NCBI GenBank assembly: GCA_964597545.1
Contig: CAZQXN010000004.1
Span: forward strand, 6,683 to 70,682
Direction of reading: 5' to 3'
Origin: an uncultured Planctomycetia bacterium
Lineage (GTDB): Bacteria > Omnitrophota > Gorgyraeia > 1-14-0-20-64-10
Length of the DNA: 64,000 bases
Shown: one piece after another, positions 822 to 61,645 of the stretch
Position numbering within the stretch: position 1 is the stretch's first letter
Layout: the number at the start of each line of letters is the position of its first letter
Made by a program: the position numbers and the translations under genes
Notes under the pieces: model-generated
What the model was told of the DNA's origin: nothing
What the model saw: only the letters and a program-made list of their open reading frames with translations
Database searches by the model: none

Positions 822-1738
822 GTGTTTTCCTGGATAAGACCACTCGGGTTATCGTTCAGGGGATTACCGGCAGGGCCGGTTCGTTCCACGCGACCCAGAT
901 GCTGGAGTATGGCACGCAGATTGTTGGGGGTGTTACCCCAGGGCGAGGCGGACAGCAGTGGGGGGAGCTTCCGATCTTTGATACCGTTGAGGAGGCGGTG
1001 GAAAAAACAGGCGCCACCGCCACCGCCATCTTTGTCCCTGCCCCACTGGGAGCCGATGCCATCTTAGAGGCCGTAGAGTCCAAGGTGAATCTGATTGTTG
1101 TCATCACTGAAGGTATCCCGGCACAAGAGATGCTTAAGGTCAAAGCGGTGCTTAAAAACAAAAGGGGTCAGACCCCCAAAGAGAAGGGGTCAGACCCTGT
1201 GATCATCGGTCCCAACGGCCCTGGGATCATTACCCCGGGCGAGGCTAAAATCGGCATCATGCCCGGCTACATCCACCGCCCAGGTTCCATCGGGGTGGTA
1301 TCTCGCTCCGGCACCTTAACCTATGAGGCAGTTTGGCAGTTGACCCAACTGGAGTTAGGACAATCCACCTGTATTGGCGTTGGTGGGGATACCCTCCCTG
1401 GAACCGGCTTTGTTGAGATTTTGGAATGTTTTGAGGCTGATCCTGCCACGCGCGCCATAGTTCTGATCGGTGAGATCGGAGGCTCTGCCGAAGAAGAGGC
1501 CGCTCGTTTCATCCGCGCCCGTGTTCATAAGCCGGTCGTTGCTTTTGTAGCCGGAGCTACCGCACCCGCGGAAAAGCGCATGGGTCATGCCGGCGCGGTG
1601 ATTGCCCAGGGGAAGGGGACCCATGCCTCCAAGATTGAGGCTCTAACTCAAGCCGGTGTCACCGTGGCCCAGAACCCTGCCCTCATTGGAAAGACCCTTG
1701 CCGAATGCCTTGCCGGACACAAGAAGCATGTAGGATGA
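818..1738 (+). CDS. sucD: Succinyl-CoA synthetase alpha subunit, with an unusual in-frame insert at about 1141-1200
   Basis: [45 protein letters not shown]...[41 protein letters not shown] is a canonical SucD. Translationally coupled to sucC. Confidence 0.9.
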
Positions 1739-3678
1739 ACAAGCGCTGCCGGTTCTGGCTCTTGATCTGCGCAGCGGGCGCGGGTCTTGCGCTTGTTCGC
1801 TGGGTCTGGGCTGAGACTGCGGAGTTCATTACCTACTACCCCACCGCAGCCGGCATTGCCGCAACCAACACAGACAGCCTTGCCATCGGCTCTGCCTACT
1901 CCGGCCAGGTCCCTCCGGACGGCTCCCTCTGGGTAGCCGACAGAATCGGGATAGGCACCACAAGCCCCCAGGGCATCCTTCATGCAGTGGGTGTGGATGA
2001 TGCGACAAGCCTCGTCATCTTCAAAGAGGGCACAGATACCGCAGCCACAGGCGCCCCAGCAATCCGTGTTGGAATCGGCACAGACAGCCCGACCAAACAG
2101 TTGAGCTTAACCGGCAACCTGAGACTCCCCCCAACCACTGCAACCTCAGGCGTTCCAGATGGCGGGGCGATCTATCTTGGCACCAACCCCTTCATCCACG
2201 CCTACGGCACCGACAATACCTTTGCCGGTGCCAATGCCGGCAATTTCACCTTGACCACAGCAGAGGCCGCCCAAAACACCGGCATCGGCACCTCAGCCCT
2301 AGCGGGCCTTACCACAGGCAGCGACAACACAGCCGTAGGCTACCAGGCCCTAAACGCCAACACCACAGGGGCGCACAACGTTGCCGTGGGATCCGAGGCG
2401 ATGCTCGAGAACACCACCGGATCCTACAACGTCGCCGCTGGCGGCGAGGCCTTAGAGAGCAACACCACTGGAGAACACAACGTTGCAGTCGGCCGGCAGG
2501 CCCTTCAGGCCAGCCAAACAGCAGACGCCAATGTTGCTGTTGGCAGCGAGGCGCTTACCGTCAATACCACAGGGACCCTCAATGTTGCCGTGGGTTACCA
2601 GGCGCTGCACTCGAATACCACCGGCAACTACAATGTTGCCATAGGCGCAGAAGCGCTCCAATCCAACGTCACCGGGGAGCACAACACCGCTGTCGGTACT
2701 CAGGCGCTCTTAGCGAATACCGCAAGCAACAATACCGCTTTCGGCCACCGGGCCTTAGCCGCCAATACCACCGGCGTCAACAATTCTGCTTTTGGTGCGC
2801 AGGCCCTGATGAGCAACACCACCGGAAGCAACAACACCGCTTTTGGCGCCTATGCTCTTGAGAGTAACACCACCGGAAGCAACAACGTTGCCGTTGGGGT
2901 CCAAGCACTCTACAACAACGATGCTGACGGTAATGTTGCCGTGGGCCGCTCCGCTCTGCAGGCCAATGTCGCAGGGACCCACAATGTTGCAGTGGGCTAC
3001 TATGCAGGGGCCAATGCTACCGGAAACGGCAATGTTTTTGTTGGATATTCCGCAGGCCCTACCAGTGCGTCATCCGACTCTAACAGGCTTTACATCGACA
3101 ACTCTGCTTCCGACACCCCCTTGATCTACGGCGACTTCACCGATGGAAGTGAGCTCGCTGCCGTAAACGGCAACCTGGGTGTCGGTACCTCCACCTTTGG
3201 TACCGGTGCCGTTGGCGTGCTCGCCATCGCAGAGGGCACCATCCCCACCTCAAGCTCGGCCAACCAAATCCAGCTTTACGCGCAGAAGGTTACCGGAAAA
3301 GCAGAGCTCAAAGTCCTAGACGAAGCCGGCAACATTACCACACTCTCCCCCCACAACTTCACGCTCATCCCCCAAGGCCCCAGCGAACCTCTCGCCTGGT
3401 CCTTCTACTCCGAGCGAGGAGAGGCCGCCATCAACGTAGATCTGCTCAAAGCCATCCGCTTAGTCGAGCATCTCACCGGCGAACAGATCGCATATTTTAA
3501 AACACAGCAACCCACCCCCCTCCAACAGCATGACAAACCCAGTTTAAGAGAGATCCGTAACCAGATCACCGCCCTGAAAACCCACAACCGCCTGCTTCAA
3601 CAGCGGTTGGATACCGGGGAAAGACAGCTTTCTCTTCTTGAAGAAACACTTCACCGCCTGCGGGAGGAGATACAGTGA
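1735..3678 (+). CDS. Secreted beta-helix repeat protein, paralog A (tail-fibre-like N-[TV]-A-[VI]-G...N-T-T-G 17-residue repeats)
   Basis: - ATG at 1735 overlaps the sucD stop (ATGA).
- Signal-peptide-like N-terminus ([26 protein letters not shown]).
- About 17 tandem repeats of the type NVAVGxxALxxNTTGxx.
- Conserved C-terminal module ([14 protein letters not shown]...[26 protein letters not shown]) plus a coiled-coil tail. Confidence 0.7.
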
Positions 3679-5606
3679 TCCCCCGCCTTAGAACCGGACG
3701 CAAGGTCTCCTTCTTGCTGGCGGGGCTCTTCCTAGTTCGTTTGGCGTGGGCCGAGACCGTAGAGTTGGTCACCTCTTACCCCACCACCGCAGGAGGAGGA
3801 ATCATCAACACCGACAGCCTTGCCGTCGGTTCTGACTACTCCGGCCAAACCCCCCCTGACGGCACCCTCTTAGTTGCCGACAAGGTCGCTATCGGTACCA
3901 CCACCCCTGCCGGCCCCCTCCATGCAGTGGGTGTGGATGACGCAGCGAGTCTCGTCATCTTCGAGGAGGGCACCGACACCGCAGCCACAGGCACCCCAGA
4001 GATCCGCTTAGGGTTAGGCACAGACACCCCCCAAGAACAGCTTCACTTAACCGGTAACCTCATTCTCCCCAAGACCACCGCCACCTCTGGAGCTATTTAT
4101 CTTGGCGCCGACCCCTTTATCCACGGCTATCATGACGCCTACAACAACCTCTTTGTGGGTGCCCAGGCAGGCAACTTTACGATGGACAGCTCTGCCAGCT
4201 GCAACATCGGCATAGGGGCCCTTGCACTCAATGGTTTAACTGAAGAGGGGCAGAATACCGGTGTCGGCTACAAAACCTTCTTTTCCACCACAGAGGGGAA
4301 TAGGAGCGTTGCCGTGGGCAGCAAGGCTCTCAGCAGCCACATGACCGGAGATATGCAGGTTGCCATCGGCGCAGATGCTATGTTGGCGGATGAAGCGGGG
4401 TTCGGAAGCGTTGCCGTAGGATGCGCAGCGTTGTCAGAGCATACCTTCGTTGCAAATAATGTCGCTATTGGGTACGGGGTCATGAACGAACTTACCGCAA
4501 ACAGCAGCGTTGCTGTGGGGTACTTTGCCATGCACGCTTCCGTCAACCCCATAGCCCCCGTTGCCATCGGAGCGCATGCGCTTGAAAACATGGAAAGCGG
4601 ACATTATCAAAATGCTGTGGGCGCCTTAGCCCTATCTTCGAGCACCGCTGCCGACTACAACACCGCTGTAGGCTTCTCTGCCTTGCAGAACAACACAATC
4701 GGTGAGGCCAACGATGCTTTTGGGGCGTATGCGCTTAACGACAACACCACCATGGACAGCAATATTGCCATAGGCACGTATGCTCTGATGCACAATACTG
4801 TTGGGATACAAAACCTTGCTGTTGGGGTCGAGGCTGTCCGCAATTCCAGTAACCACCGCAACCTTGCATTGGGCAGGTCTGCTTTACGAGACAGCACAAC
4901 AGGGCGGAATAATGTTGTGATCGGTTTTGAAGCAGGGGTCAGTGCAACCGGAAATTACAACGTCTTTATTGGTTCGCAGGCCGGCAGCAATGAGACCGGC
5001 GACAACACCCTCTACATCGAAAACTCCGCTTCCTCCACCCCCTTGATCTACGGTGAGTTTGACAACGATCTGATCGCCATCAACGGCAACCTGGGTGTCG
5101 GTACCTCCACCTTTGGCACCGGTGCCGTTGGCGTGCTCGCCATCGCAGAGGGCACCATCCCCGGCTCAAGCCCGGCCAACCAAATCCAGCTCTACGCAGA
5201 AGAGGTCTCCTCCAGCTCAGAGCTCAAGGTCCGCGATGAAGGTGGCACCATCACCACACTCTCCCCCCACAACTTTACGCTCATCCCCCAAGGCCCCAGC
5301 GAGCCGATGGCTTGGTCCTTTTACTCCAAGCGGGGAACCCAGGCCATCAACGCCGACATACTCAAAACAGTTCGCCTCATCGAAAAGCTTTCCGGCGAGC
5401 AGCTTGTCTGGATCAAGAGCCTAAGCAGCCCACAGCCCCCTCCATCCCAGACAGCAACAGAGCCTTCCGCCTTACTCCTTGTCCAGCAGGAGCTCGAAAC
5501 CCTCAAGGCCCAGAATCAAATCCTCAGGCAGCGCCTCAAGCAACAGAGAGGGCGCATCCAATCCTTTCAAGGAGCCCTTCAGCAGCTTAAGGAGCTCCTC
5601 CGATGA
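3675..5606 (+). CDS. Secreted beta-helix repeat protein, paralog B
   Basis: - GTG start overlaps the stop of paralog A (GTGA).
- Same architecture as A: signal peptide, ETVELVTSYPTTAGG N-module, degenerate NxAxG repeats, conserved [27 protein letters not shown]-module, coiled-coil tail. Confidence 0.7.
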   Translation: MIPRLRTGRKVSFLLAGLFLVRLAWAETVELVTSYPTTAGGGIINTDSLAVGSDYSGQTPPDGTLLVADKVAIGTTTPAGPLHAVGVDDAASLVIFEEGTDTAATGTPEIRLGLGTDTPQEQLHLTGNLILPKTTATSGAIYLGADPFIHGYHDAYNNLFVGAQAGNFTMDSSASCNIGIGALALNGLTEEGQNTGVGYKTFFSTTEGNRSVAVGSKALSSHMTGDMQVAIGADAMLADEAGFGSVAVGCAALSEHTFVANNVAIGYGVMNELTANSSVAVGYFAMHASVNPIAPVAIGAHALENMESGHYQNAVGALALSSSTAADYNTAVGFSALQNNTIGEANDAFGAYALNDNTTMDSNIAIGTYALMHNTVGIQNLAVGVEAVRNSSNHRNLALGRSALRDSTTGRNNVVIGFEAGVSATGNYNVFIGSQAGSNETGDNTLYIENSASSTPLIYGEFDNDLIAINGNLGVGTSTFGTGAVGVLAIAEGTIPGSSPANQIQLYAEEVSSSSELKVRDEGGTITTLSPHNFTLIPQGPSEPMAWSFYSKRGTQAINADILKTVRLIEKLSGEQLVWIKSLSSPQPPPSQTATEPSALLLVQQELETLKAQNQILRQRLKQQRGRIQSFQGALQQLKELLR

Positions 5607-7690
5607 CCTTGCGATCAATCCGACACTGGGCCCTCTTGTTCTTGGCAGTTGCCTCCTTTACCTGGCTGGCCCGGGCAGACACCGTGGAATTCACCATCTA
5701 CCACCCGGTCTCAACCGGTGCCGGAGGAACACACGCCGATGAACTGGCCATCGGATCTACCTACTCCAGCGAGACCCCCGGCGACGGCAGCTTAATCGTC
5801 GCCGACCGCTTAGGGATAGGGACCACCAGCCCCGCAGGCCCCCTCCATGTGGTAGGTGTGGACGACACAACCAGCTACGTCATCTTCAAGGAAGGGGCCA
5901 ACACCGCAGCTGCCGGCACCCCGGAGATCCGCGTAGGACTCGGCACCGACGACCCCCAAGAACAACTTCACTTAACCGGTAACCTCAGACTCCCCCCAAC
6001 CACCGTTGACTACGGCTACAAAGCTGGAGTCATCTATACCGACCCCGAAGGTTCCCTGAACCACTATATTCACGGTGATGGTGTTTCAGGAACCTTTATT
6101 GGAAGAGGAGCGGGCAATCTGGTGGTTGATTCCGCGATTGCCCGAAACGTTGGTATCGGCCGATCTGCCCTTTGTGATCCGGACTATACCGGATCAGACA
6201 ATACGGCTGTGGGGGGCAGCGCCTTAAGCTTCAATGAAGATGGGCAGTGGAATGTGGTTGTTGGAGATAGTGCGATGGCTTACAATCTTTCCGGGACTTC
6301 AAATACCGCTTTGGGCCTTTCTGCACTCAATAGCAACACAACCGGCAACTCCAACGTTGCTCTGGGATACAACGCTTTGGTTCAGAACACGACAGGGAGT
6401 TTTAACACTGCTGTTGGGGTGCGCACTTTAACTCAAAGTGCCGACGGCGAAAGGAATGTGGCCGTTGGAGCCAACGCCCTCAGGGACAATCAGGCTGTCG
6501 GCAGCAATGTGGCAGTCGGCGCTGGAGCGCTTGCATCAAATACTACCGGAGAGGGAAATGTTGCCGTAGGCATTGCCTGCCTCGGGCGAAATAGTACCGC
6601 AGATCACAATACGGGCATAGGTCGCTTTGCGCTGTGGGAAAACACCACAGGCTCAGAAAATTCGGTTTTGAGCGGATGGGAGGGTGGCAAAGACAACACA
6701 ACCGGAAGCAGTAACACCGGCGCAGGGTGTAGGGTTCTCTACAGGAATACAACAGCGAGCGACCAAGTTGCGCTGGGTGGGATGGCGCTTGGTAACAGTG
6801 CTCTTGGGGACGGCAGCGTTGGGATTGGCCAATCCGCACTTGCCGCAGATCAGGCAGGGCCCAACAACGTTGTCATTGGCTATGAGGCGGGAAAGTTAGC
6901 TTGCGGTGCCGGCTGCGTCTTTATCGGAAACTGGGTTGGTAGAAGCGAGATGGATAGCGAACAACTCCACATCGATAACTCCTCCACAGACACCCCCTTG
7001 ATCTGCGGTGAGTTCACCGATGGCAGCGAGCTCGTCACCGTAAACCACAACTTAGGTGTTGGCACCGCCACCTTTGGCACCGGTGCCGTTGGCGTGCTCG
7101 CCATCGCCAACGGCGCTATCCCCACCTCAAGCCCGGCCGACCAGATCCAGCTCTACGCTCAGGATGTGGATCAAGGAGGCGGCACCATGCGCTCAGAGCT
7201 TTATGTCCGGGACGAAGCCGGCAATCCGCCCACAAAGCTCTCGGATCCACCCCTGGTGGCAGCTCGCCTCACACCCGGGATCCCGGAGGATTGCAGCAAT
7301 GTGACTGCACTCTCCCCCCATAACTTCTCCCTGATCCCTGGGGGTCCCAGTGAACCGATGGCCTGGTCCTTCTACTCTGAACGTGGAGATACCGCCATCA
7401 ACGTAGACATGCTCAGAGTCGTCCGCTTGGTGGAGCAGATCTCTGGTGAGCACCTCGTCTACCTCAAAGATCTCAAAGCCGGTCAATATTTCCTGCAGCT
7501 GGCCGACATGAAAGAGCTTCCCAGCATAAAACAGTTGAGCGAGCAGGTCGCCACCGTCGGCGCTGAGCAGCGTGCTTTCGAACAGGAGTTGGCAGCGCAG
7601 GAGGAAGATCTGCGCCTCATCCAAGAAATGCTAACCGGGGACGGTCCATTTGGGGACACACCGTGGTCGGCCATTGCGAAAAGGCAGTAG
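5603..7690 (+). CDS. Secreted beta-helix repeat protein, paralog C
   Basis: - ATG overlaps the stop of paralog B (ATGA).
- Signal peptide, conserved N- and C-modules ([26 protein letters not shown]), divergent repeat core.
- 3' end overlaps the left inverted repeat of the RAYT cassette. Confidence 0.7.
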   Translation: MTLRSIRHWALLFLAVASFTWLARADTVEFTIYHPVSTGAGGTHADELAIGSTYSSETPGDGSLIVADRLGIGTTSPAGPLHVVGVDDTTSYVIFKEGANTAAAGTPEIRVGLGTDDPQEQLHLTGNLRLPPTTVDYGYKAGVIYTDPEGSLNHYIHGDGVSGTFIGRGAGNLVVDSAIARNVGIGRSALCDPDYTGSDNTAVGGSALSFNEDGQWNVVVGDSAMAYNLSGTSNTALGLSALNSNTTGNSNVALGYNALVQNTTGSFNTAVGVRTLTQSADGERNVAVGANALRDNQAVGSNVAVGAGALASNTTGEGNVAVGIACLGRNSTADHNTGIGRFALWENTTGSENSVLSGWEGGKDNTTGSSNTGAGCRVLYRNTTASDQVALGGMALGNSALGDGSVGIGQSALAADQAGPNNVVIGYEAGKLACGAGCVFIGNWVGRSEMDSEQLHIDNSSTDTPLICGEFTDGSELVTVNHNLGVGTATFGTGAVGVLAIANGAIPTSSPADQIQLYAQDVDQGGGTMRSELYVRDEAGNPPTKLSDPPLVAARLTPGIPEDCSNVTALSPHNFSLIPGGPSEPMAWSFYSERGDTAINVDMLRVVRLVEQISGEHLVYLKDLKAGQYFLQLADMKELPSIKQLSEQVATVGAEQRAFEQELAAQEEDLRLIQEMLTGDGPFGDTPWSAIAKRQ

Positions 7691-7742
7691 TTAATAGAGG
7701 GCGCGATAGAGAAGAAGCAAGTTTCCTATTTCTGACATAATA

Positions 7743-7772
7743 TTGATAATATGCAAAATCTTGTGGTATGCT
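7743..7772 (+). promoter_or_regulatory. Putative sigma70-type promoter for the RAYT gene (TTGATA - 18 nt - TATGCT, with TG upstream)
   Basis: TTGATA at 7743-7748 and TATGCT at 7767-7772 in an AT-rich gap upstream of the ATG at 7792. Shares an ATATGCAA motif with two other promoter-like sites. Confidence 0.35.
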
Positions 7773-7791
7773 GTCGATCGGGTAATAAAAC

Positions 7792-8388
7792 ATGCCACGA
7801 GTTGCAAGACAAGCCAGTGCGGCGGGATATTATCATGTTGTAGCCAGAGGGCATAACCGTCAGGCCATCTTCCGGGATTCCCAAGACTACCAACAATACC
7901 TCATCTATTTGTCACGTTTTAAAGAAGCGCCATCCTGTCGCTGTTACCATTTCTGCCTTATGCCGAATCATCTCCATTTGTTGCTTGGGATGGATTCTGT
8001 GCGTTCTCTCACTGGGATGATGCGACGAGTGCAGCAGGCATACCAGTTTCATTGGCGTCGTCGCTATGATCTCGTAGGCAATCTTTGGCAGGGAAGGTTT
8101 AAGAGTATTCCGGTTGATCAAGACGAGTACTTATTGGAGGCCAGTCGCTATATTGAACGGAATCCCGTCCGGGCGAAATTATGCGTTCTTCCTGAAGACT
8201 ATCCGTGGTCGAGCGCTCACCTTTACCTTAAGGAGCGAAGCAAAGGGTGCGGTTTGCTTGATTTGAGCCCGGCGTACTTGATGTTAGGTTCCAGCGAAGA
8301 GAAGAGACGGCAACGGTACCGGGAACACATAATGCAAGTACGGCCATATGACCAATTGGTTGACGCACAGATGGAGCGACTGATTTGA
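7792..8388 (+). CDS. REP-associated tyrosine transposase (RAYT), IS200/IS605 TnpA-like HUH Y1 transposase
   Basis: N-terminal YHVVARGHNRQAIF and HUH motif LMPNHLHLLL are typical of Tnp_REP / Y1 transposases. 198 aa. Confidence 0.8.
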   Translation: MPRVARQASAAGYYHVVARGHNRQAIFRDSQDYQQYLIYLSRFKEAPSCRCYHFCLMPNHLHLLLGMDSVRSLTGMMRRVQQAYQFHWRRRYDLVGNLWQGRFKSIPVDQDEYLLEASRYIERNPVRAKLCVLPEDYPWSSAHLYLKERSKGCGLLDLSPAYLMLGSSEEKRRQRYREHIMQVRPYDQLVDAQMERLI

Positions 8389-8450
8389 TGTGCAACGAGG
8401 ACACCTTCCCGGTCAAGGTGATGTAGGTGTGTCCCCAAATGGACCGTCCC

Positions 8451-9809
8451 CTATTGGGTTTGGCCGGTAAAGGTAAAGTCCTTCAACAGCACAGCCGGGG
8501 TGACCACCGAGGTAGCGCCTGAGATCGGATCGGCCACCAGACGAACCTCCTCGGAAAGGGCCTGGATTTTTGAGAAGGCCTGAAGAATCGACTGCGTAAA
8601 CCGTAAATTCTTCACAGCGCTCACCACCCTACCTCTCTCCACCAGAAAGGTTCCGTCTCGAGTCAACCCCGTCATCAAGGCCTGCTGTGTGTCGAGCAGC
8701 CCGTTGACGTAGTGGAAGCGAGTAATCCATAGCCCTCGATCCATACATTGAAGCATTTGGTGATGCGGTACCTTACCCGGGGCCACACAGAGATGGGCGG
8801 CCCCGGGCCCTTCGGCGGCTTCGTCAAAGGCAGGGGCATGCCCGGTGGAGTGGCGGTGGTACAGCTTGGCGTATTGGCTGTCAAAGACCACCCCGCGGGC
8901 CCGTCCCCCCTCAACCAGCGGTACGCGCCTCTTCGGGATCCCTTCAAAATCAAAGGGAGTTGCCAGCCCGCGGGTATCGGTACCGTCATCCCAGATCGAC
9001 AGCGTTGGATGCATGAGTTGCTCTCCCATGCGGCCTGCAAAACAGCTGGTTCGCTCATGCAGCTGTTTGGCCCCAAAGGCGATGGTGGAAAGCCACTCCA
9101 CCAATTCCGCCACCGCCTCGGGCTCAAGCAGGACATTGTACTTCCCCAACCGGATGGTTTTGGAGTTCCTGTTATGCCTGCAGTGGTCCAGGGCTTGCTG
9201 TAGAAGGGACTGTGGGTTGAGGGTCTTGGGGTCGCGAACAGCCCCTGCTGCAAAGCCAGAAGCCTTGCCTTGGGTGGGAATCAATCTTAAGCCCGTGGTT
9301 GAGAAGGGCTGATACTGCGCAAGCCCCCCAGAGCCTACCACGCAGAACTCCTCCTCTCCTGTTGCAAAGGAGCCGGCCAAGTCCATTCCAGCGCGGTGGG
9401 TTTGTTGGGAGAGCTCTCGGATCATTCGGATGTTCTTGGTCAGGTTCTGGCGGTGATCCACTGGGAAGTGCGTCTTGATGGGGGCGGGTTTTTCGCGGGG
9501 TGGATGCGCGCTGAAGGCCGGTGCAGTCTGCTTGCTGGGGAGCCGTGCAATTTGAAGCGCAGAGGCAATCGCGCAAGTGAGTGCACGGTCGCTCAGTGAA
9601 GATGTGGTGGCAACCCCGGCGCGCCCCTCTGCCGCTACCTTGACCCAGACGGTGACATCCTCCTCATGGAAATTTTGATGAATGGCACCCCCGGCAAAGC
9701 GCAGGGTAGTCTTGGCGCCCCGCTGTACGGTTAAAAGGGTCTCATCGGCCGGTGATCTCTTTGCCGCCTCCTTAAGTACAGTCACCATGCGGGATTTACC
9801 CAGGAGCAT
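8451..9809 (-). CDS. pmbA: TldE/PmbA-family metalloprotease-associated protein
   Basis: 452-aa protein with TldD/PmbA-family layout. Start overlaps the stop of the tldD-like gene upstream on the minus strand. Confidence 0.75.
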   Translation of the reverse strand: MLLGKSRMVTVLKEAAKRSPADETLLTVQRGAKTTLRFAGGAIHQNFHEEDVTVWVKVAAEGRAGVATTSSLSDRALTCAIASALQIARLPSKQTAPAFSAHPPREKPAPIKTHFPVDHRQNLTKNIRMIRELSQQTHRAGMDLAGSFATGEEEFCVVGSGGLAQYQPFSTTGLRLIPTQGKASGFAAGAVRDPKTLNPQSLLQQALDHCRHNRNSKTIRLGKYNVLLEPEAVAELVEWLSTIAFGAKQLHERTSCFAGRMGEQLMHPTLSIWDDGTDTRGLATPFDFEGIPKRRVPLVEGGRARGVVFDSQYAKLYHRHSTGHAPAFDEAAEGPGAAHLCVAPGKVPHHQMLQCMDRGLWITRFHYVNGLLDTQQALMTGLTRDGTFLVERGRVVSAVKNLRFTQSILQAFSKIQALSEEVRLVADPISGATSVVTPAVLLKDFTFTGQTQ

Positions 9810-19295: not shown

Positions 19296-20723
19296 ATGGT
19301 TTCTTCTGATTTACAGACTCGTTACCTCAAGGCACAATTGGCCTTTCTGGATGGCCAGATGCTTATGGACCCCAGCGTCAATGATCAAGTCGGATTTGAT
19401 TTTCAAGGTCTAAGGCGCAGCTACTTTGATGACCCAAAGCACGGGCAGTCCAAGTTTGTCGCGCACTCAGGGCGTGTCTGGATCTATGACGTGGCCCTAT
19501 CGATCTACGCAGACCTTAAATCCAAACGGTTCCAGCAGGCTGTCCATCAGGCTGATCGGGTGGTCCAGCTGGCGCAGAGGGAAGAGGAGCGAGGTTTCCA
19601 GGGGCTGTGGCACTTTTCCTACAACACGAAAGAGGACAGCTTCATCGATCCGCGTGGGCCCACCGGCGCCAATGCCTGGTGCTTGAATGCCCTCTACGCC
19701 TGCGCGCTGGAACGCGGGGATAGGGCGCTGTTGGCTTGGCTGAACCAGAAGGTAGAGAGCTACCTCTTTGGCGAGCAGGTGATCAACCGCAAAGATCCAC
19801 GCCACGGCCTCATTCGATCTGGGCGCTACAACGCCGATGACCTCGCTCGGGAAGATTCCATGGGATATGACGTGTACAGAGGAGACCTGAATCATTCCTA
19901 CGAACACGTTATTTTGGAACATTGCGCCGATGCTGCCGGAACATTCCGGCTGGCCTTCCGGGCCAACCGGCGGTTGGATCCAAAGAACAAACCGTTTCTC
20001 GAGATCCTCATCGAGCGTCATGACTGGCTCATTCAGGGGATGCGGCGCTGTTTCTGGCAGGGGGATCATTTTGTTTCTGCCCTGGATGGCCAAGGGCAAT
20101 TGTACCGGGGAAGAGACGGTCAGCCCAGCGTTGCCGTGGACAACAACACCTGGTCAGCCCACATCTTTGTGCCCTATGACTTAGAGCTAGCCCGTTCGGC
20201 AGCTCGCTACGTGGAGGATCGGTTCATCACCCAGGTCCCTCCGGCTATGCTGGAAGATCTTCCATCTGACTCCACGCAGGCAGGTTCCGTGCAGGAGGGG
20301 CTGGAGGGGTTGTATTACTTCCCGGACACCTTTGCCGATCCCTTTGTCCAGATTCCTGACCAGAGACGTGAAAAAGTAGAAAAACTTCTCCACCCGGAGG
20401 CTGCCTTGGGGTTTGTTCTGTTCCTCCTCGGTTTGGCCGATCACCTCTCGGGTTCGGAGCAAGAACGCTTGCGCCAACGAGCACTGAAGCTCTACGAGGA
20501 TACCGCCAATCTCCAGGGACTCTACGGTGCGCACGCCGCCCCTTACGCAAGCGTCAACATTCCTCCGATCTTCTCCACCCTCCACTCTGTGACGACGGCT
20601 GCATGCGGAGTGATTACCACTAGGATCCTGCAGGGGGCACCCAGCGATGATTTCATCGGGGTGATGCCGCCCAAGGAGATGACAGTTGCAGGTCAAGCGC
20701 CTGCCCGCTCCATTGATGACTAG
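19296..20723 (+). CDS. Hypothetical protein within the bio operon (475 aa), unknown function
   Basis: Intact ORF between bioF and bioD-bioA. No diagnostic motif recognised; composition is alpha-helical and enzyme-like. Confidence 0.5.
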   Translation: MVSSDLQTRYLKAQLAFLDGQMLMDPSVNDQVGFDFQGLRRSYFDDPKHGQSKFVAHSGRVWIYDVALSIYADLKSKRFQQAVHQADRVVQLAQREEERGFQGLWHFSYNTKEDSFIDPRGPTGANAWCLNALYACALERGDRALLAWLNQKVESYLFGEQVINRKDPRHGLIRSGRYNADDLAREDSMGYDVYRGDLNHSYEHVILEHCADAAGTFRLAFRANRRLDPKNKPFLEILIERHDWLIQGMRRCFWQGDHFVSALDGQGQLYRGRDGQPSVAVDNNTWSAHIFVPYDLELARSAARYVEDRFITQVPPAMLEDLPSDSTQAGSVQEGLEGLYYFPDTFADPFVQIPDQRREKVEKLLHPEAALGFVLFLLGLADHLSGSEQERLRQRALKLYEDTANLQGLYGAHAAPYASVNIPPIFSTLHSVTTAACGVITTRILQGAPSDDFIGVMPPKEMTVAGQAPARSIDD

Positions 20724-22827
20724 AGGTCTTTTTGTTACCGGTACCGGAACAGAGGTAGGAAAAACCGTTGTAACGGCGGCCCTGGCCCATGCCTTCCTTA
20801 GACAGGGAGTGAATGTTGGGGTTGTCAAGCCTATAGCGACCGGCTGCCAGCGGCGCGGCGGCAAACTTATCTCATCGGATGCCGAGAAGCTTCTCCGGGC
20901 AAGCGGCGCTGGGGACCCCACGGAATGGGTCTGTCCCTATCGCTTCAGGCCTCCGGTTGCTCCTTCAGTTGCGGCAGGCAAACAGGGCATCTCCTTCTCT
21001 CGAATCGATCAGGCCATGGAGCGCTTGAGCAGCCGCCATGATCTTCTTTTGGTTGAGGGGATCGGCGGGCTTCTGGTGCCCCTGGATGCCCGCCGCACCG
21101 TTGTGGATCTGGCAGCGCACCTGAAGCTTCCCCTGCTTGTGGTGGCCCATGCGGGGCTAGGGACCCTGAATCATACCCTCCTTACCCTTGAGGCGGCTCG
21201 ATCCAGGAACCTTGAAGTAGCTGGCATTGTCTTGAATCAGCGCAGTCCCACTCCCTCTCTGGCAGAGCAGACCAATCCAGCGGTATTGCGCAAATTGGGT
21301 CAGGTGCCGGTTCTAGGGGTAATCCCTCACCTGAGATTCCCCTCCCCAGAGCAGGTAGCCGGCTACCTTAAGGCCAAAAAGATCTTTCAGAAAATCGGTA
21401 CCAGGTACCAAACCCAAACCCCTTGTACAAAAGGGTCAGACCCTTTCGTACAGCGCCTACGGAGCGGTCACGTACGAAAAGTTCAGACCCTGAGCCATCG
21501 GTACCTGGTACCAAAGGCCGTACCAAAGGCTCAAGCGAAGCGTTTGATCCAGAGCGACCGCAAGCGGCTGTGGCACCCCTTTACCCAGATGCAGGATTGG
21601 GAAAAGGAGGAGTCGCTGATCATCCGCTCTGCCCGCGGGGTGTGGCTTACCGACATCCACGGCCGTCGCTATCTCGATGGTGTCTCCTCCCTCTGGGTCA
21701 ATCTCCACGGCCACCGCCATCCGGCCCTGGACCAGGCCTTAAAACAGCAGGTTGATCGAGTGGCCCACTCCACCCTTTTGGGGGCAGCCAACATTCCCTC
21801 CATCGAGCTGGCAGAGGAGATCTTGCGGGTGGCCCCCAAGAATCTCACACGCGTTTTCTACTCCGACAGCGGCTCTACTGCTGTTGAAATTGCACTCAAG
21901 ATGGCTTTTCAGTACTGGCAGCAAAACGGCCGCCCGCGCCGCCGTCGCTTTGTCCACTTTGTCGATGCCTACCATGGGGATACGGTGGGCTCTGTCTCGG
22001 TCGGCGGGATCGACCTGTTTCATCAGGTGTACAAGCCCCTGCTCTTTAAGGGGTTCAAGGTTCCCTTGAACAAGATTAAGCCCTTTGAGGAGACCCTGCG
22101 CAAGCACCACCCCGAGATTGCCGGTGTCGTGGTAGAGCCCTTGGTGCAAGGGGCGGCTGGGATGGCGACCCAACCCAAAGGGTGGCTCAAGCAGGTAGAA
22201 AGGCTCTGCCGCCGCTACGGACTGCTGCTGATTGCTGATGAGGTGGCAGTAGGTTTCGGGAGAACCGGCACGATGTTTGCCTGCGAGCAGGAGAAGGTGC
22301 GTCCAGATCTGCTCTGTTTGGCCAAGGGGTTAAGCGGCGGCTACCTTCCTCTGGCGGCGACCCTGGCCTCTGAGCGAATTTACAAAGGGTTTTTGGGCTC
22401 CTATGCCTCCAAGCGGACCTTTTTTCATGGGCACAGCTACACCGGAAATCCCTTGGCCTGCGCGGTTGCTTTAGAGAGCCTGCGTCTTTTCCGCCGCGAG
22501 AAGGTGCTGCAGAGACTTAAGCCTAAAATCCGGCTCTTTACACAGGAGCTCAAACGCTTCTGGGAACTTCCCCATGTAGGAGATGTGCGCCAGCAGGGGC
22601 TGATGGCTGGCATCGAGCTAACCCAAGATAAAGCAAAAGGCACCCCTTATCCCTGGGAAACCAAGATGGGGATTCAAGTCTGCAGTGCGCTCAGAGCCGA
22701 GGGCATTCTCTTGAGACCCCTGGGCAACGTGGTGGTGCTCATGCCCCCTCTGGTCATCTCCCGAGAGGAGCTTAACTTTCTTTGCCGCAAGACCTATACT
22801 GCTGTGGATCGAGTGACTGGCATTTGA
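20716..22827 (+). CDS. bioDA: Dethiobiotin synthetase fused in-frame to adenosylmethionine-8-amino-7-oxononanoate aminotransferase (BioD-BioA), linker encoded by a MITE-like repeat
   Basis: - N-terminal GTGTEVGKTVVTAAL P-loop (BioD).
- C-terminal WHPFTQMQ...YSDSGSTAVEIALKMA class-III aminotransferase (BioA).
- Single ORF with no stop between them.
- A possible internal TTG at 21544 could also start bioA independently. Confidence 0.8.
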   Translation: MTRGLFVTGTGTEVGKTVVTAALAHAFLRQGVNVGVVKPIATGCQRRGGKLISSDAEKLLRASGAGDPTEWVCPYRFRPPVAPSVAAGKQGISFSRIDQAMERLSSRHDLLLVEGIGGLLVPLDARRTVVDLAAHLKLPLLVVAHAGLGTLNHTLLTLEAARSRNLEVAGIVLNQRSPTPSLAEQTNPAVLRKLGQVPVLGVIPHLRFPSPEQVAGYLKAKKIFQKIGTRYQTQTPCTKGSDPFVQRLRSGHVRKVQTLSHRYLVPKAVPKAQAKRLIQSDRKRLWHPFTQMQDWEKEESLIIRSARGVWLTDIHGRRYLDGVSSLWVNLHGHRHPALDQALKQQVDRVAHSTLLGAANIPSIELAEEILRVAPKNLTRVFYSDSGSTAVEIALKMAFQYWQQNGRPRRRRFVHFVDAYHGDTVGSVSVGGIDLFHQVYKPLLFKGFKVPLNKIKPFEETLRKHHPEIAGVVVEPLVQGAAGMATQPKGWLKQVERLCRRYGLLLIADEVAVGFGRTGTMFACEQEKVRPDLLCLAKGLSGGYLPLAATLASERIYKGFLGSYASKRTFFHGHSYTGNPLACAVALESLRLFRREKVLQRLKPKIRLFTQELKRFWELPHVGDVRQQGLMAGIELTQDKAKGTPYPWETKMGIQVCSALRAEGILLRPLGNVVVLMPPLVISREELNFLCRKTYTAVDRVTGI
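21393..21517. mobile_element. MITE/REP-like hairpin element with terminal inverted repeats AATCGGTACCAGGTACCAAACCC / CCTTTGGTACCAGGTACCGATG, inserted in-frame in the bioD-bioA linker
   Basis: - Terminal GGTACCnGGTACC units are in inverted orientation.
- Internal GGGTCAGACCCTTTCGTAC / GTACGAAAAGTTCAGACCC inverted pair.
- The same 19-mer recurs at 57034-57052. Confidence 0.6.
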
Positions 22828-37607: not shown

Positions 37608-37655
37608 CCGGTACCGGGTACAATGTACCCGGTACAATGTACCCGGTACATTTTT
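37608..37655. repeat. GGTACC-family hairpin repeat (two CCGGGTACAaTGTACCCGG copies plus T-run), probable bidirectional terminator between dcd and gpmA
   Basis: ggtaccgggtacaatgtacccggtacaatgtacccggtacattttt. Confidence 0.55.
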
Positions 37656-41586: not shown

Positions 41587-42841
41587 CACTCGTCGCATCC
41601 CCCTCTGGAAGCATGTGCGCCCAGAGGATTGGGAAGACTGGCATTGGCAGTTGCGAAACCGCATCACCACGGTGGATCAATTACGCCGGATTGTCTCATT
41701 GACCCCCGAGGAAGAGTATGCGTGTGCCCAGCGAGAGGGCCGACTCGTCATGGCCATCCCCCCTTACTGGGCCTCTCTCATGGATCCGAAGGATCCCAAC
41801 TGTCCCGTCCGTTTGCAGACAGTACCCCTGGATCAGGAGTTTAATATTCGAGCGCACGACATGGAAGATCCCTGCGGTGAAGACGCCGACATGCCGGTGC
41901 CGGGGCTGGTGCATCGCTATCCCGACCGAGTGCTTTTCTTGGTTACCGAGCAGTGTGCGATGTACTGCCGCCACTGTACCCGCAGGCGTTTGGTGGGGGT
42001 GAATCACGGCCTGGCTTCCAGTCATGAGCGGGTCTACCAGTATCTTAAGGCGCACCCAGAGGTCCGGGATGTGCTGATCTCCGGCGGGGATCCCCTCATG
42101 ATGACCGATACCCGCCTCCATCAGATCTTGGGCCGGCTTCGGGAGATTCCCCACCTGGAGTTCATCCGAATTGGCTCTCGAACGCCGGTGACCATGCCGC
42201 AGCGCGTTACCCCGGAACTGTGTGAGATGCTTAAAGCGCATAAGCCGATCTGGATGAGCCTGCATTTCTGTCACCCCAAGGAGATTACACCGCGCGTCCA
42301 ACAGGCCTTGGAGATGCTGGCCGACAGCGGTGTCCCCTTAGGTTCGCAGACGGTGCTCTTAAAGGGGATCAACACGGATCCGGCGGTGATGAAGAAGCTG
42401 ATGCATGAGCTGCTCAAGGCGAGGGTCAAACCCTACTACATCTATCAGTGCGATATGGCGCAGGGGATCAGCCACTTTCGCACCAAGGTGGAGACAGGGG
42501 TTCGGATCATCGAGGCTCTGCGGGGACACACCTCAGGTTATGCCGTTCCGACCTTTGTGATTGACGGCCCCGGCGGAGAAGGAAAGGTTCCGATCCATCC
42601 CGACACCGTCATCTCCTATAAACGGGGGGTGATCAAGCTGCGCAATTATGCCGGCAAGCTCCTCACCTACCATGAGCCGGATGAGGTTGAGGAGGAAGAG
42701 GAGCTTTTGGTGCCGGTTCCGGTTCGATCCAACGGCAACGGCCACAGAAACGGCAACGGCCACAAGAATGGCAACGGCCACAAGAATGGCAACGGCTCTA
42801 AGGGGCGCGCAGCGGTTAAGGCCCGCACCAACGGCAACTAA
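41576..42841 (+). CDS. Lysine-2,3-aminomutase-like (KamA family) radical SAM enzyme, with a C-terminal NGNGH(K/R) repeat tail
   Basis: CAMYCRHCTRR radical-SAM motif, WQLRNRITT KamA N-motif. Start proposed at the TTG at 41576, 5 nt after AAGGAGGG. ORF opens at 41507. Confidence 0.7.
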   Translation: MDDSTRRIPLWKHVRPEDWEDWHWQLRNRITTVDQLRRIVSLTPEEEYACAQREGRLVMAIPPYWASLMDPKDPNCPVRLQTVPLDQEFNIRAHDMEDPCGEDADMPVPGLVHRYPDRVLFLVTEQCAMYCRHCTRRRLVGVNHGLASSHERVYQYLKAHPEVRDVLISGGDPLMMTDTRLHQILGRLREIPHLEFIRIGSRTPVTMPQRVTPELCEMLKAHKPIWMSLHFCHPKEITPRVQQALEMLADSGVPLGSQTVLLKGINTDPAVMKKLMHELLKARVKPYYIYQCDMAQGISHFRTKVETGVRIIEALRGHTSGYAVPTFVIDGPGGEGKVPIHPDTVISYKRGVIKLRNYAGKLLTYHEPDEVEEEEELLVPVPVRSNGNGHRNGNGHKNGNGHKNGNGSKGRAAVKARTNGN

Positions 42842-42868: not shown

Positions 42869-42916
42869 GGTACCGGGTACACTTTTCAACAGTGTACCCG
42901 GTACCTTTGTTTTGTT
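42869..42916 (+). terminator. 15-bp perfect hairpin of the GGTACC repeat family followed by a T-rich run
   Basis: GGTACCGGGTACACTtttcaacAGTGTACCCGGTACC then TTTGTTTTGTT. Confidence 0.5.
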
Positions 42917-42954
42917 GACGGATCCCTTCCGTACCTGGTACCGTCTTTGTTGTC

Positions 42955-60502: not shown

Positions 60503-61645
60503 ATGAAGAGCAAGATGAAATTGATTATAGGTATGATAATGGGATTTTCATTCTCGGTAGTGATGCTATGTATGGGGGGTAGTTCCATATATGCTGCCGA
60601 GCTTGAGGTGGATAAGGAGGAATTTAACGAAAAATGGCAGGAAACCTACAAGGAACTTCAGGAGATTGATCCTACAGCAGCCGAAGAATTTCGCGCTTTA
60701 ACTGTGGAGGAATTTGAAGTAGGAAATGTCGGATATGTTCCTGAAGAGAGAGGGGGGACTGAGGAAATAGGTCCTGGCCCTGCTCCCGGTCCTAGGCCTG
60801 GTCCGCATGTCGGTCCCCGTCCTGATCCCGTGGAAGCTTTGAAAGCAAAAGGAATAAGTGATGAGGATATTGGCAAGATTCGCAAGGCTGAGGAAGCATT
60901 AAGCGTGGAAAGCGAGAAGGTCGAATGGGATAAGCTGACTCCCGAGGAAGCAAGGAAGGTGGAGCAGTCCTTCGGAGAACGTTTCAAGGAAATGAGCGGG
61001 TATGATCCAAAAGATATTTTTGCCCCGCCTCCGGGAGACCACCACCCAGAAGGCCCATATCACGGGCCAGGACATGAGGGGCCTTACGCTGGTCCTCATC
61101 ATGAAGGGCCTTATGTCGGTCCTCGTCCGGAACCTGGCTTCATAGAGGGTCCATATCCTGGGCCAGGACATGAAGGACCTTACGCCGGTCCTCATCCAGA
61201 ACGTGGTTTTGAAGGTCCCGTGATGGGGGGGCCGATGCCTGAAGGTCCCGTGATGGGGGGGCCGATGCCTGAAGGTCCCATGATGGAGGGCCCGGCATTT
61301 GAGGGTCCTATGATGGGGGGGCCGATGCCTGAAGGTCCCATGATGGATAGGCCGATGTTTGAAGGTCCTATGATGGAGGGCCCGGCGTTTGAGGGTCCCA
61401 TGATGGAAGGGCCGGCATTTGAGGGTCCCATGATGGAGGGCCCGGCGTTTGAGGGCCCGGCATTTGAGGGCCCAGCGTTTGAGGGTCCGGCGTTTGAGGG
61501 CCCGGCATTTGAGGGTCCGGCGTTTGAGGGCCCGGCATTTGAGGGCCCAGCGTTTGAGGGTCCGGCATTTGAGGGCCCAGGAGAGGATATAGAGCATATC
61601 CATGATGAGAATATGCCACCACCTCCAGAAGAGAATAATCCGTAA
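60503..61645 (+). CDS. Secreted His/Pro/Gly-rich tandem-repeat protein (EGPYxGPxH, EGPMMEGP and EGPAFEGP repeats)
   Basis: Signal peptide MKSKMKLIIGMIMGFSFSVVMLCMGGSSIYA at the ATG at 60503. 15-nt and 30-nt periodic coding repeats at about 61020-61600. AT-rich context. Confidence 0.7.
   Translation: MKSKMKLIIGMIMGFSFSVVMLCMGGSSIYAAELEVDKEEFNEKWQETYKELQEIDPTAAEEFRALTVEEFEVGNVGYVPEERGGTEEIGPGPAPGPRPGPHVGPRPDPVEALKAKGISDEDIGKIRKAEEALSVESEKVEWDKLTPEEARKVEQSFGERFKEMSGYDPKDIFAPPPGDHHPEGPYHGPGHEGPYAGPHHEGPYVGPRPEPGFIEGPYPGPGHEGPYAGPHPERGFEGPVMGGPMPEGPVMGGPMPEGPMMEGPAFEGPMMGGPMPEGPMMDRPMFEGPMMEGPAFEGPMMEGPAFEGPMMEGPAFEGPAFEGPAFEGPAFEGPAFEGPAFEGPAFEGPAFEGPAFEGPGEDIEHIHDENMPPPPEENNP

Follow-up and report, generated by a model that had tools for sequence, protein, structure and literature searches.

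Organisation of the locus

A 64,000-nt stretch of contig CAZQXN010000004.1 (positions 6,683 to 70,682 of the forward strand, assembly GCA_964597545.1), which originates from an uncultured bacterium of an Omnitrophota lineage and is hereafter called the window, contains at positions 7637-8451 a cassette in which the gene of a RAYT-like transposase of the HUH/Y1 type lies between two perfect inverted repeats. With a probability of about 0.8, this cassette corresponds to a TIRtron, i.e., one TIRYT gene, close to Y1 subclass 2.1 or RAYT group 1, with an inverted copy of its cognate two-part repeat on either side; by analogy, the gene product would act on short doublets of this repeat. The cognate repeat takes the form of GGGGACGNTCC, an A/T spacer, and then GGGGACAC. 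RAYT-like genes located between long terminal inverted repeats (TIRs) were named TIRtrons and the proteins they encode TIRYTs (Di Nocera, De Gregorio, Rocco 2013, BMC Genomics 14:522, PMC3733652). The features of the locus are as follows:

5603-7690, plus strand: gene C, a beta-helix open reading frame (ORF) of 695 aa, with the left arm within its last codons, where it encodes GDGPFGDTP
7622-7690, plus strand: remodelled 3' end of gene C, namely the last 23 codons QEMLTGDGPFGDTPWSAIAKRQ and the stop, non-homologous to the ortholog tail SETVSALEGKQR and stop
7637-7662, plus strand: left TIR arm, GGGGACGGTCCATTTGGGGACACACC, inside the 3' coding end of gene C
7652-7659, plus strand: GGGGACAC box, agreeing at every position with GGGGWSAS, the consensus for TIRs associated with TIRYTs, and mirrored at 8429-8436 on the minus strand
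7743-7772, plus strand: promoter-like site TTGATA-18-TATGCT, its -10 hexamer preceded by TG, in an A+T-rich leader (36% G+C) within the cassette
7792-8388, plus strand: TIRYT/RAYT-like HUH/Y1 transposase gene (198 aa; Pfam Y1_Tnp), between the arms
8426-8451, minus strand: right TIR arm, exact reverse complement of the left arm, with 8451 as its outermost base
8451-9809, minus strand: PmbA/TldD-family gene (pmbA), which borders the cassette and served as anchor for locating relatives

The two arms match each other at 26 positions out of 26, which none of 100 shuffles equalled (zero chance expectation), and no further copy of the 26-mer with up to three mismatches, or of its 22-nt core with up to five, was found in the 64 kb. 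The left arm is composed of two parts, i.e., GGGGACGGTCC and GGGGACAC, separated by an ATTT spacer. Taken singly, an arm is not predicted to form a hairpin, its folding being no better than that of shuffled sequence (z -0.8 to +0.5). The arms are spaced 763 nt apart around the transposase gene, the whole cassette covers 815 bp, and base 8451 of the right arm supplies the third base in the TAG stop codon of the minus-strand pmbA-like ORF. An earlier note on this DNA, made from the sequence alone, had described perfect 26-bp inverted repeats around a 198-aa HUH Y1 transposase, the right repeat abutting the pmbA stop, and this description proved accurate in all its details.

The G+C content of the cassette is 49.4%, compared to 56.7% for the window. 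The site at 7743-7772 may be the promoter of the transposase gene. A scan of positions 7000-9000 against Rfam gave no match. An independent assembly of the source run (L001, a Logan contig of SRR8146443) starts at the equivalent of window position 7758, with its break inside the cassette leader, 34 nt ahead of the transposase start codon, which may reflect strain variation or low coverage there.

The transposase

The sole Pfam match of the 198-aa protein at E<=0.01 is Y1_Tnp (E 1.4e-13, residues 12-124), and its score against the NCBIfam model REP_Tyr_transpos is 73.3 bits, under the curated equivalog cutoff of 80. Across an alignment of 28 homologues, the invariant residues are the HUH histidines H60 and H62 (PNHLHLL), Q100 (WQGRF, with WQ at 99-100), the catalytic Y120 together with N124 and P125 (RYIERNP), and S140 (YPWSS), the neighbouring S141 being nearly invariant. 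As a single-sequence phmmer search against the PDB returned only spurious Cas12X and kinase matches, a profile was needed instead; the profile built from the alignment found as best match 4ER8, i.e., TnpAREP of E. coli (E 6e-9), then ISDra2 TnpA (7e-5) and IS608 TnpA (0.5). The fold closest to the AlphaFold2 model (predicted local distance difference test score, pLDDT, of 89.9) is again 4ER8_A, with E 1.6e-8 and a template modelling (TM) score of 0.76 over the whole 165-residue chain, whereas the IS200/IS605 transposases of IS608 and ISDra2 give weaker fold matches (1e-5 to 1e-4); four short helices are modelled at residues 141-197. The protein is therefore a class 2, RAYT-type Y1 enzyme rather than an IS200/IS605 transposase, in agreement with the RAYT hallmarks that had been attributed to it previously.

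The insertion sequences (ISs) of the IS200/IS605 family nonetheless offer an alternative identity for the cassette. The Pfam Y1_Tnp match and the similarity of fold to the transposases of IS608 and ISDra2 speak for it, and the HUH/Y1 catalytic core is common to both, as presumably is a chemistry based on single-stranded DNA. The tyrosine motif, however, is of the class 2 form Y---NP and not Y---Q, the best matches in both sequence and fold are to TnpAREP, and the ends are true inverted terminal repeats instead of dissimilar subterminal hairpins; besides, no tnpB gene is present and the element is of low copy, the gene being the only Y1 gene in the window. A classical IS200/IS605 element, largely refuted by the comparisons of motif and fold, is therefore very unlikely.

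Repeats flanking homologous genes

Homologous genes in other contexts are likewise bordered by inverted repeats. The repeats beside the closest homologues (L002-L006; 62-65% identical) read GGGACG[C/G]TCCATTTGGGGACAC and have the same inverted orientation. A further set comprised 80 metagenome loci with 38-65% protein identity, 70 of which had enough flanking sequence; in 61 of these 70 the flanking inverted repeat scored above all 20 shuffles, and in 55 it exceeded the highest null score found anywhere. Throughout the family the repeats are two-part, with a short palindromic first box (GGGACG(T)TCCC, GTACCNGGTACC, GGTGCCATCC and others), an A/T spacer of 3-5 nt, and a second box (GGGACAC, GTGCCAC and others). 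The repeat classes map onto the clades of the proteins, and the window protein groups with L055, L056, and L006 in the GGGAC-type clade. Flanking repeats are in this sense characteristic of the family as a whole, and their sequence class goes with the clade of the protein. A two-part repeat that hardly varies among proteins only 40% identical, and among metagenome-assembled genomes (MAGs) whose labels name different phyla, may reflect that such units are often transferred horizontally.

Two minor features were encountered in these flanks. In L006 (positions 2128-2176), the right repeat of the transposase gene is interrupted between its two boxes by a 20-nt hairpin (CCTGCCTGCCGGTAGGCAGG), and a near-identical hairpin occurs at the same position within a dispersed doublet of a different MAG (L008, about 6915-6945); it may be a second small palindromic element targeting the repeat. 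In L002-L005, a fragment corresponding to the first 77 residues of a second Y1 transposase (41% identical) lies about 330 nt upstream of the intact gene, along with a duplicated left repeat, and appears to be the remnant of an earlier or tandem cassette.

Dispersal of the repeat in related genomes

In species-representative genomes, the exact 26-mer had no match. The same genomes were scanned with a degenerate 19-mer, GGACGNTCCATTTGGGGAC, which was found at 48 loci, compared to about 17 expected (own calculation from the database size). These loci are clustered in few MAGs, on 11, 8, 6, and 4 contigs each, and a Y1 gene or protein is present at only 3 of the 48. In the viral contigs scanned, the repeat motif had no match.

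Most of the dispersed copies are arranged as inverted doublets 37-65 nt apart, i.e., hairpins of about 60 nt such as GGGGACGTTCCATTTGGGGACAGTCCACTTTAAATGAAGTGTCCCAAAGTGTAACGTCCCC, and related MAGs hold 4-13 exact repeat copies, mostly in doublets. For the doublets folded as single-stranded DNA, the energies lie between -17 and -26 kcal/mol (z -6 to -11). In every copy from one MAG, the arms of a doublet differ from each other at identical positions, which suggests that the doublet rather than the single arm is the copied unit. This dispersal of doublets in related genomes is a REPIN-like behaviour.

In the MAG CAZXJX01 (L017, L020, L021, L027, L039), many hairpin doublets are immediately followed on their 3' side by 7-10 nt of unique sequence duplicated directly in tandem, e.g., TATGCTTCC|TATGCTTCT and TTTTTGCCC|TTTTTGCCA. 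Both copies are on one side of the element, unlike in a target-site duplication, and they may represent an insertion footprint or replication slippage induced by the hairpin. In another MAG, JAFGRN01 (Omnitrophota Zod_Metabat.83; L029, L045, L052), the exact 22-nt repeat variant of the window is found as single copies, which have a further 20 to >75 nt in common on the inner side (ACCCCATACGATATTTTT...), and the arm may there be part of a longer repeated element.

History of the locus

A close relative, L135 (P0122; JGI contig Ga0118719_1000606), encodes a PmbA 89% identical to that of the window and presents the gene order A', B', C', D' followed by a convergent pmbA, with no Y1 or RAYT gene and neither type of repeat in 19 kb. 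Comparing the window to L135 by blastn, homology stops at 7621, i.e., 15 nt before the left arm, and resumes at 8452, the first base past the right arm. The ortholog C' ends with ...DLRLISETVSALEGKQR and gene C with ...DLRLIQEMLTGDGPFGDTPWSAIAKRQ. In relatives with a 63% identical PmbA, the spot is occupied by a PIN toxin-antitoxin pair (L137) or by a VKOR/DsbA gene (L138). The interval that separates the paralog array from the 3' end of pmbA contains, depending on the genome, the cassette (window 7622-8451), a dockerin-like paralog (L135 11360-12918), the PIN pair (L137 7360-8078), or the VKOR/DsbA gene (L138 1574-2812). Since relatives hold different genes there, the site downstream of pmbA is variable.

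As the cassette is absent from this spot in three relatives, including the one with an 89% identical PmbA, it is a derived, lineage-specific, and recent gain beside pmbA, and its low G+C content is also consistent with an acquisition. Its arrival remodelled the C-terminus of gene C, which received a new tail of 23 codons, partly encoded by the repeat. A left repeat inside gene C and a possible remodelling of its C-terminus had been proposed beforehand; the tail indeed differs from that of the ortholog in the relative lacking the cassette. A variant in which the arm was inserted alone, so that the tail WSAIAKRQ would be homologous to SALEGKQR of the ortholog, was rejected, the shuffle test being non-significant (p = 0.07 and 0.33).

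The paralog array itself (window 1705-7690; L135 12919-18852) is a tandem array of three paralogs of 640-700 aa with signal-peptide-like N-termini and coiled-coil tails, and includes repeats of the NxxGxxN(T)A(V)G type with a 51-54-nt period at 2308-2919. L135 adds the fourth, dockerin-like paralog, and more distant relatives have genes annotated as Peptidase_S74 and Peptidase_G2 at the same position.

These comparisons bear on two other interpretations. In the first, the inverted repeat would be a fixed local palindrome unrelated to mobility, serving regulation or termination between genes that converge. It does sit between the convergent gene C and pmbA, and only two copies are present in the window. 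Against it, the same motif borders homologues of 38-65% identity whose contexts are unrelated and also occurs scattered through related MAGs, the arms form no hairpins on their own, and L135 lacks the motif. This scenario, which the earlier note had named as its own refutation, is excluded by the family-wide and genome-wide distribution of the motif and is hardly credible.

In the second, the TIR-gene-TIR unit would itself be mobile as a whole, namely an autonomous, IS-like, TIR-delimited Y1 transposon caught after a recent insertion, the right junction of which falls exactly at the outer end of the TIR, rather than a domesticated single-copy RAYT servicing short repeats only. The spot is without a cassette in the relative of 89% identity and in two others at greater distance, the homology picks up again precisely where the right arm ends on its outer side, the G+C content is below that of the surroundings, and the arms are perfect; in addition, group 1 is one of two RAYT groups described as those which "most closely resemble ISs", duplicates making up 6.2% and some members residing on plasmids (PMC5581495). 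On the other side, there is one copy in 64 kb, repeats far outnumber gene copies in related MAGs, no target-site signature was found, and the relative shows a replacement and not a clean empty site. Mobility of the whole unit is then possible, though doubtful; if true, it would provide natural evidence for the mobility of a class 2 (RAYT-type) gene, which is stated to be lacking in the literature.

Probable assignment to the TIRtrons

The interpretation preferred here remains that of a TIRtron, and the cassette is in this respect a new example of an already described kind (TIRtron, 2013). The GGGGWSAS sequence is common to many TIRtron TIRs, and for some members the TIR sequence makes up a family of moderate abundance in the host genome, as singles, dimers, or clusters (PMC3733652). 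Quentin et al. 2018 (PMC6006769) place the TIRYTs largely in subclass 2.1, which ranks second by size among the Y1 subclasses and equals the group 1 RAYTs of Bertels et al. 2017. This subclass is characterised by NHVH or NH[YF]H, W[EQ] or FQ, YIELNP or Y[IV]HLNP, SS in the tail, and no REP hairpins (PMC6006769, Table 1), while the TIRYT examples in it carry a C-terminal helix-turn-helix (HTH) domain, with a subclass median length of 238 (PMC6006769). For RAYT group 1, about 12 genome copies of the flanking 16-mers were reported (Bertels et al. 2017, PMC5581495).

The cassette agrees with the TIRtrons in having a RAYT-like HUH/Y1 gene within long TIRs instead of GTAG-tagged REP hairpins, in the presence of the GGGGWSAS box in these TIRs (here GGGGACAC), and in a TIR family that is moderately abundant in related genomes, often as dimers. 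It differs by its host, which to judge by the source names of homologues is apparently an uncultured lineage of Omnitrophota type and is outside the species set of PMC3733652, by the location of the left TIR within a coding sequence, and by the window containing only the two flanking TIR copies. Respective to subclass 2.1, the class 2 tyrosine motif Y---NP (YIERNP; YIELNP in one homologue), the NH[VL]H type of the HUH motif, WQ (FQ in some homologues), and SS in the proximal tail are all found, together with inverted repeats bearing GGGG[AT][CG]A[CG] and the absence of REP-like hairpins beside the gene. The earlier note had viewed a TIR-bounded RAYT as atypical, a view that does not stand given that TIRtrons and TIRYTs with GGGGWSAS TIRs are documented (PMC3733652) and among the largest Y1 subclasses (PMC6006769).

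With the canonical RAYT/REPIN systems (E. coli TnpAREP 4ER8; Pseudomonas RAYT groups 2 and 3), the resemblance consists of the best profile and fold match, a single gene flanked by inverted repeat copies, and the dispersal of the repeat in related genomes as inverted doublets forming long hairpins. In contrast, one repeat unit by itself neither folds nor constitutes a GTAG-tagged palindrome, no GTAG-tagged hairpin (REP) flanking the transposase gene is present at the locus, the REP_Tyr_transpos score is below the cutoff, and copy numbers in related MAGs are tens at most and not hundreds.

Several points weigh against the TIRtron interpretation as a whole. The placement in subclass 2.1, or RAYT group 1, is a rough one taken from motif signatures only, strict membership being unproven; the protein is shorter than the subclass median by length (198 aa vs. 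238), and no C-terminal HTH domain (Bac_DnaA_C, HTH_23, or HTH_28) was detected by Pfam at E<=0.01. In the 64-kb window the repeat is present only as the two arms flanking the gene, its dispersal being seen in related MAGs. At the outer ends of 130 unique arms, where target-site signatures had been suggested as a point to look for, no target-site duplication, conserved target tetranucleotide, or cleavage site was found, the only signal being an A/T-rich flank with TA|GGGG as the commonest form. The comparison with L135 corresponds to a replacement (D' vs. cassette) and not to a clean empty site, because D' fills the site there, and the left junction is located only to within 15 nt. Finally, the steps of the mechanism proposed below are all drawn by analogy.

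GGTACC-type repeats in the window

Another type of repeat occurs in the window, namely 12 exact copies of GTACCNGGTAC, compared to an expectation of about 2 even with one mismatch allowed. These palindromes form intergenic clusters at 21.4, 37.6, 42.9, 48.0, 57.0, and 63.6 kb (positions 21398, 21501, 37611-37639, 42870-42931, 48018, 57019, 63636, and 63662), some of them in tandem with a 14-nt period. They have in common with the flanking repeats of clade B of the protein family an outer flank and a spacer that are both A-rich, as well as GTACCNGGTACC, and the GGGRWC second box is also found in the copies at 42931 (minus strand) and 57019 (plus strand), i.e., in 2-3 copies. Because of this resemblance to clade-B flanking repeats, the GGTACC repeats belong to the same repeat superfamily as the arms of the cassette. 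No clade-B Y1 gene is present in the 64-kb window, nor any Y1 gene other than that of the cassette. The cognate enzyme to be expected for them is a clade-B protein, about 40-45% identical to the window transposase, which is itself probably not their cognate mobiliser.

The opposite had been suggested earlier, i.e., that the transposase of the cassette mobilises the GGTACC-type repeats of the window. In favour are the architecture common to the repeats of this protein family (A-rich flank, GTACCNGGTACC, A-rich spacer, and GGGRWC box in 2-3 copies), the second box common to both repeat classes, and the fact that the gene is the only Y1 gene within the window. The GGTACC-flanked members of the family, however, constitute a separate clade about 40-45% identical, and the own arms of the gene are of the GGGAC type; moreover, in canonical TnpAREP/REP pairs the enzyme and its repeat are co-evolved (PMC8266576), and as the 64 kb are only part of the genome, a clade-B enzyme may lie elsewhere. 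In the form in which it was put forward the suggestion is unsupported, and such a role for the transposase is unlikely.

One GGTACC-type cluster is intragenic. At 21391-21519, within the ORF 20686-22827, this cluster and a GTAC...GGGTCAGACCC...GTAC hairpin lie in frame in the interdomain linker of a BioD-BioA fusion ORF of 713 aa, in which AAA_26 ends at residue 217 and Aminotran_3 begins at 306; the fusion of the close relative has 682 aa. It looks like an intragenic repeat insertion tolerated by the protein.

Proposed mechanism

By analogy with TnpAREP, as described in PMC3479197 and PMC8266576, and with TnpA of IS200/IS605, the TIRYT of the cassette would bind its repeat as single-stranded DNA, with the invariant GGGGWSAS box as probable recognition tag, in the role of the GTAG tag. 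Cleavage would occur near the A/T-rich outer border through Y120, with a covalent 5'-phosphotyrosine intermediate. Short doublets would snap into hairpins and provide an efficient substrate to be copied or moved. The own arms of the gene, because they are 763 nt apart, would pair rarely, and the gene would therefore remain low in copy number. As for its history in this lineage, the cassette reached the variable spot downstream of pmbA, replaced or displaced a fourth paralog, and gave gene C its new tail.

Significance

The cassette is ordinary in kind, an instance of the TIRYT/TIRtron class from an uncultured lineage resembling Omnitrophota, and its added value is modest, namely the evidence of recent acquisition and the repeat grammar that extends over the family. 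Usable details are the two-part repeat consensus, the co-variation of the repeat class with the transposase clade, and the REPIN-like heterodimer doublets in related MAGs. The presence/absence polymorphism between close relatives shows that such a cassette can reach a new site and rewrite the C-terminus of the adjacent gene. For annotation purposes, membership in one repeat superfamily accounts for the inverted repeat of 26 nt and, in an indirect way, for the GGTACC repeats, and the last 23 codons of gene C should be regarded with caution, being derived from the junction and the repeat. Unrelated to the cassette, coding tandem repeats are found at 61178-61597 (30-nt period, with 15-nt sub-steps) and at 42731-42796 (18-nt period, AACGGCAACGGCCACAAG).

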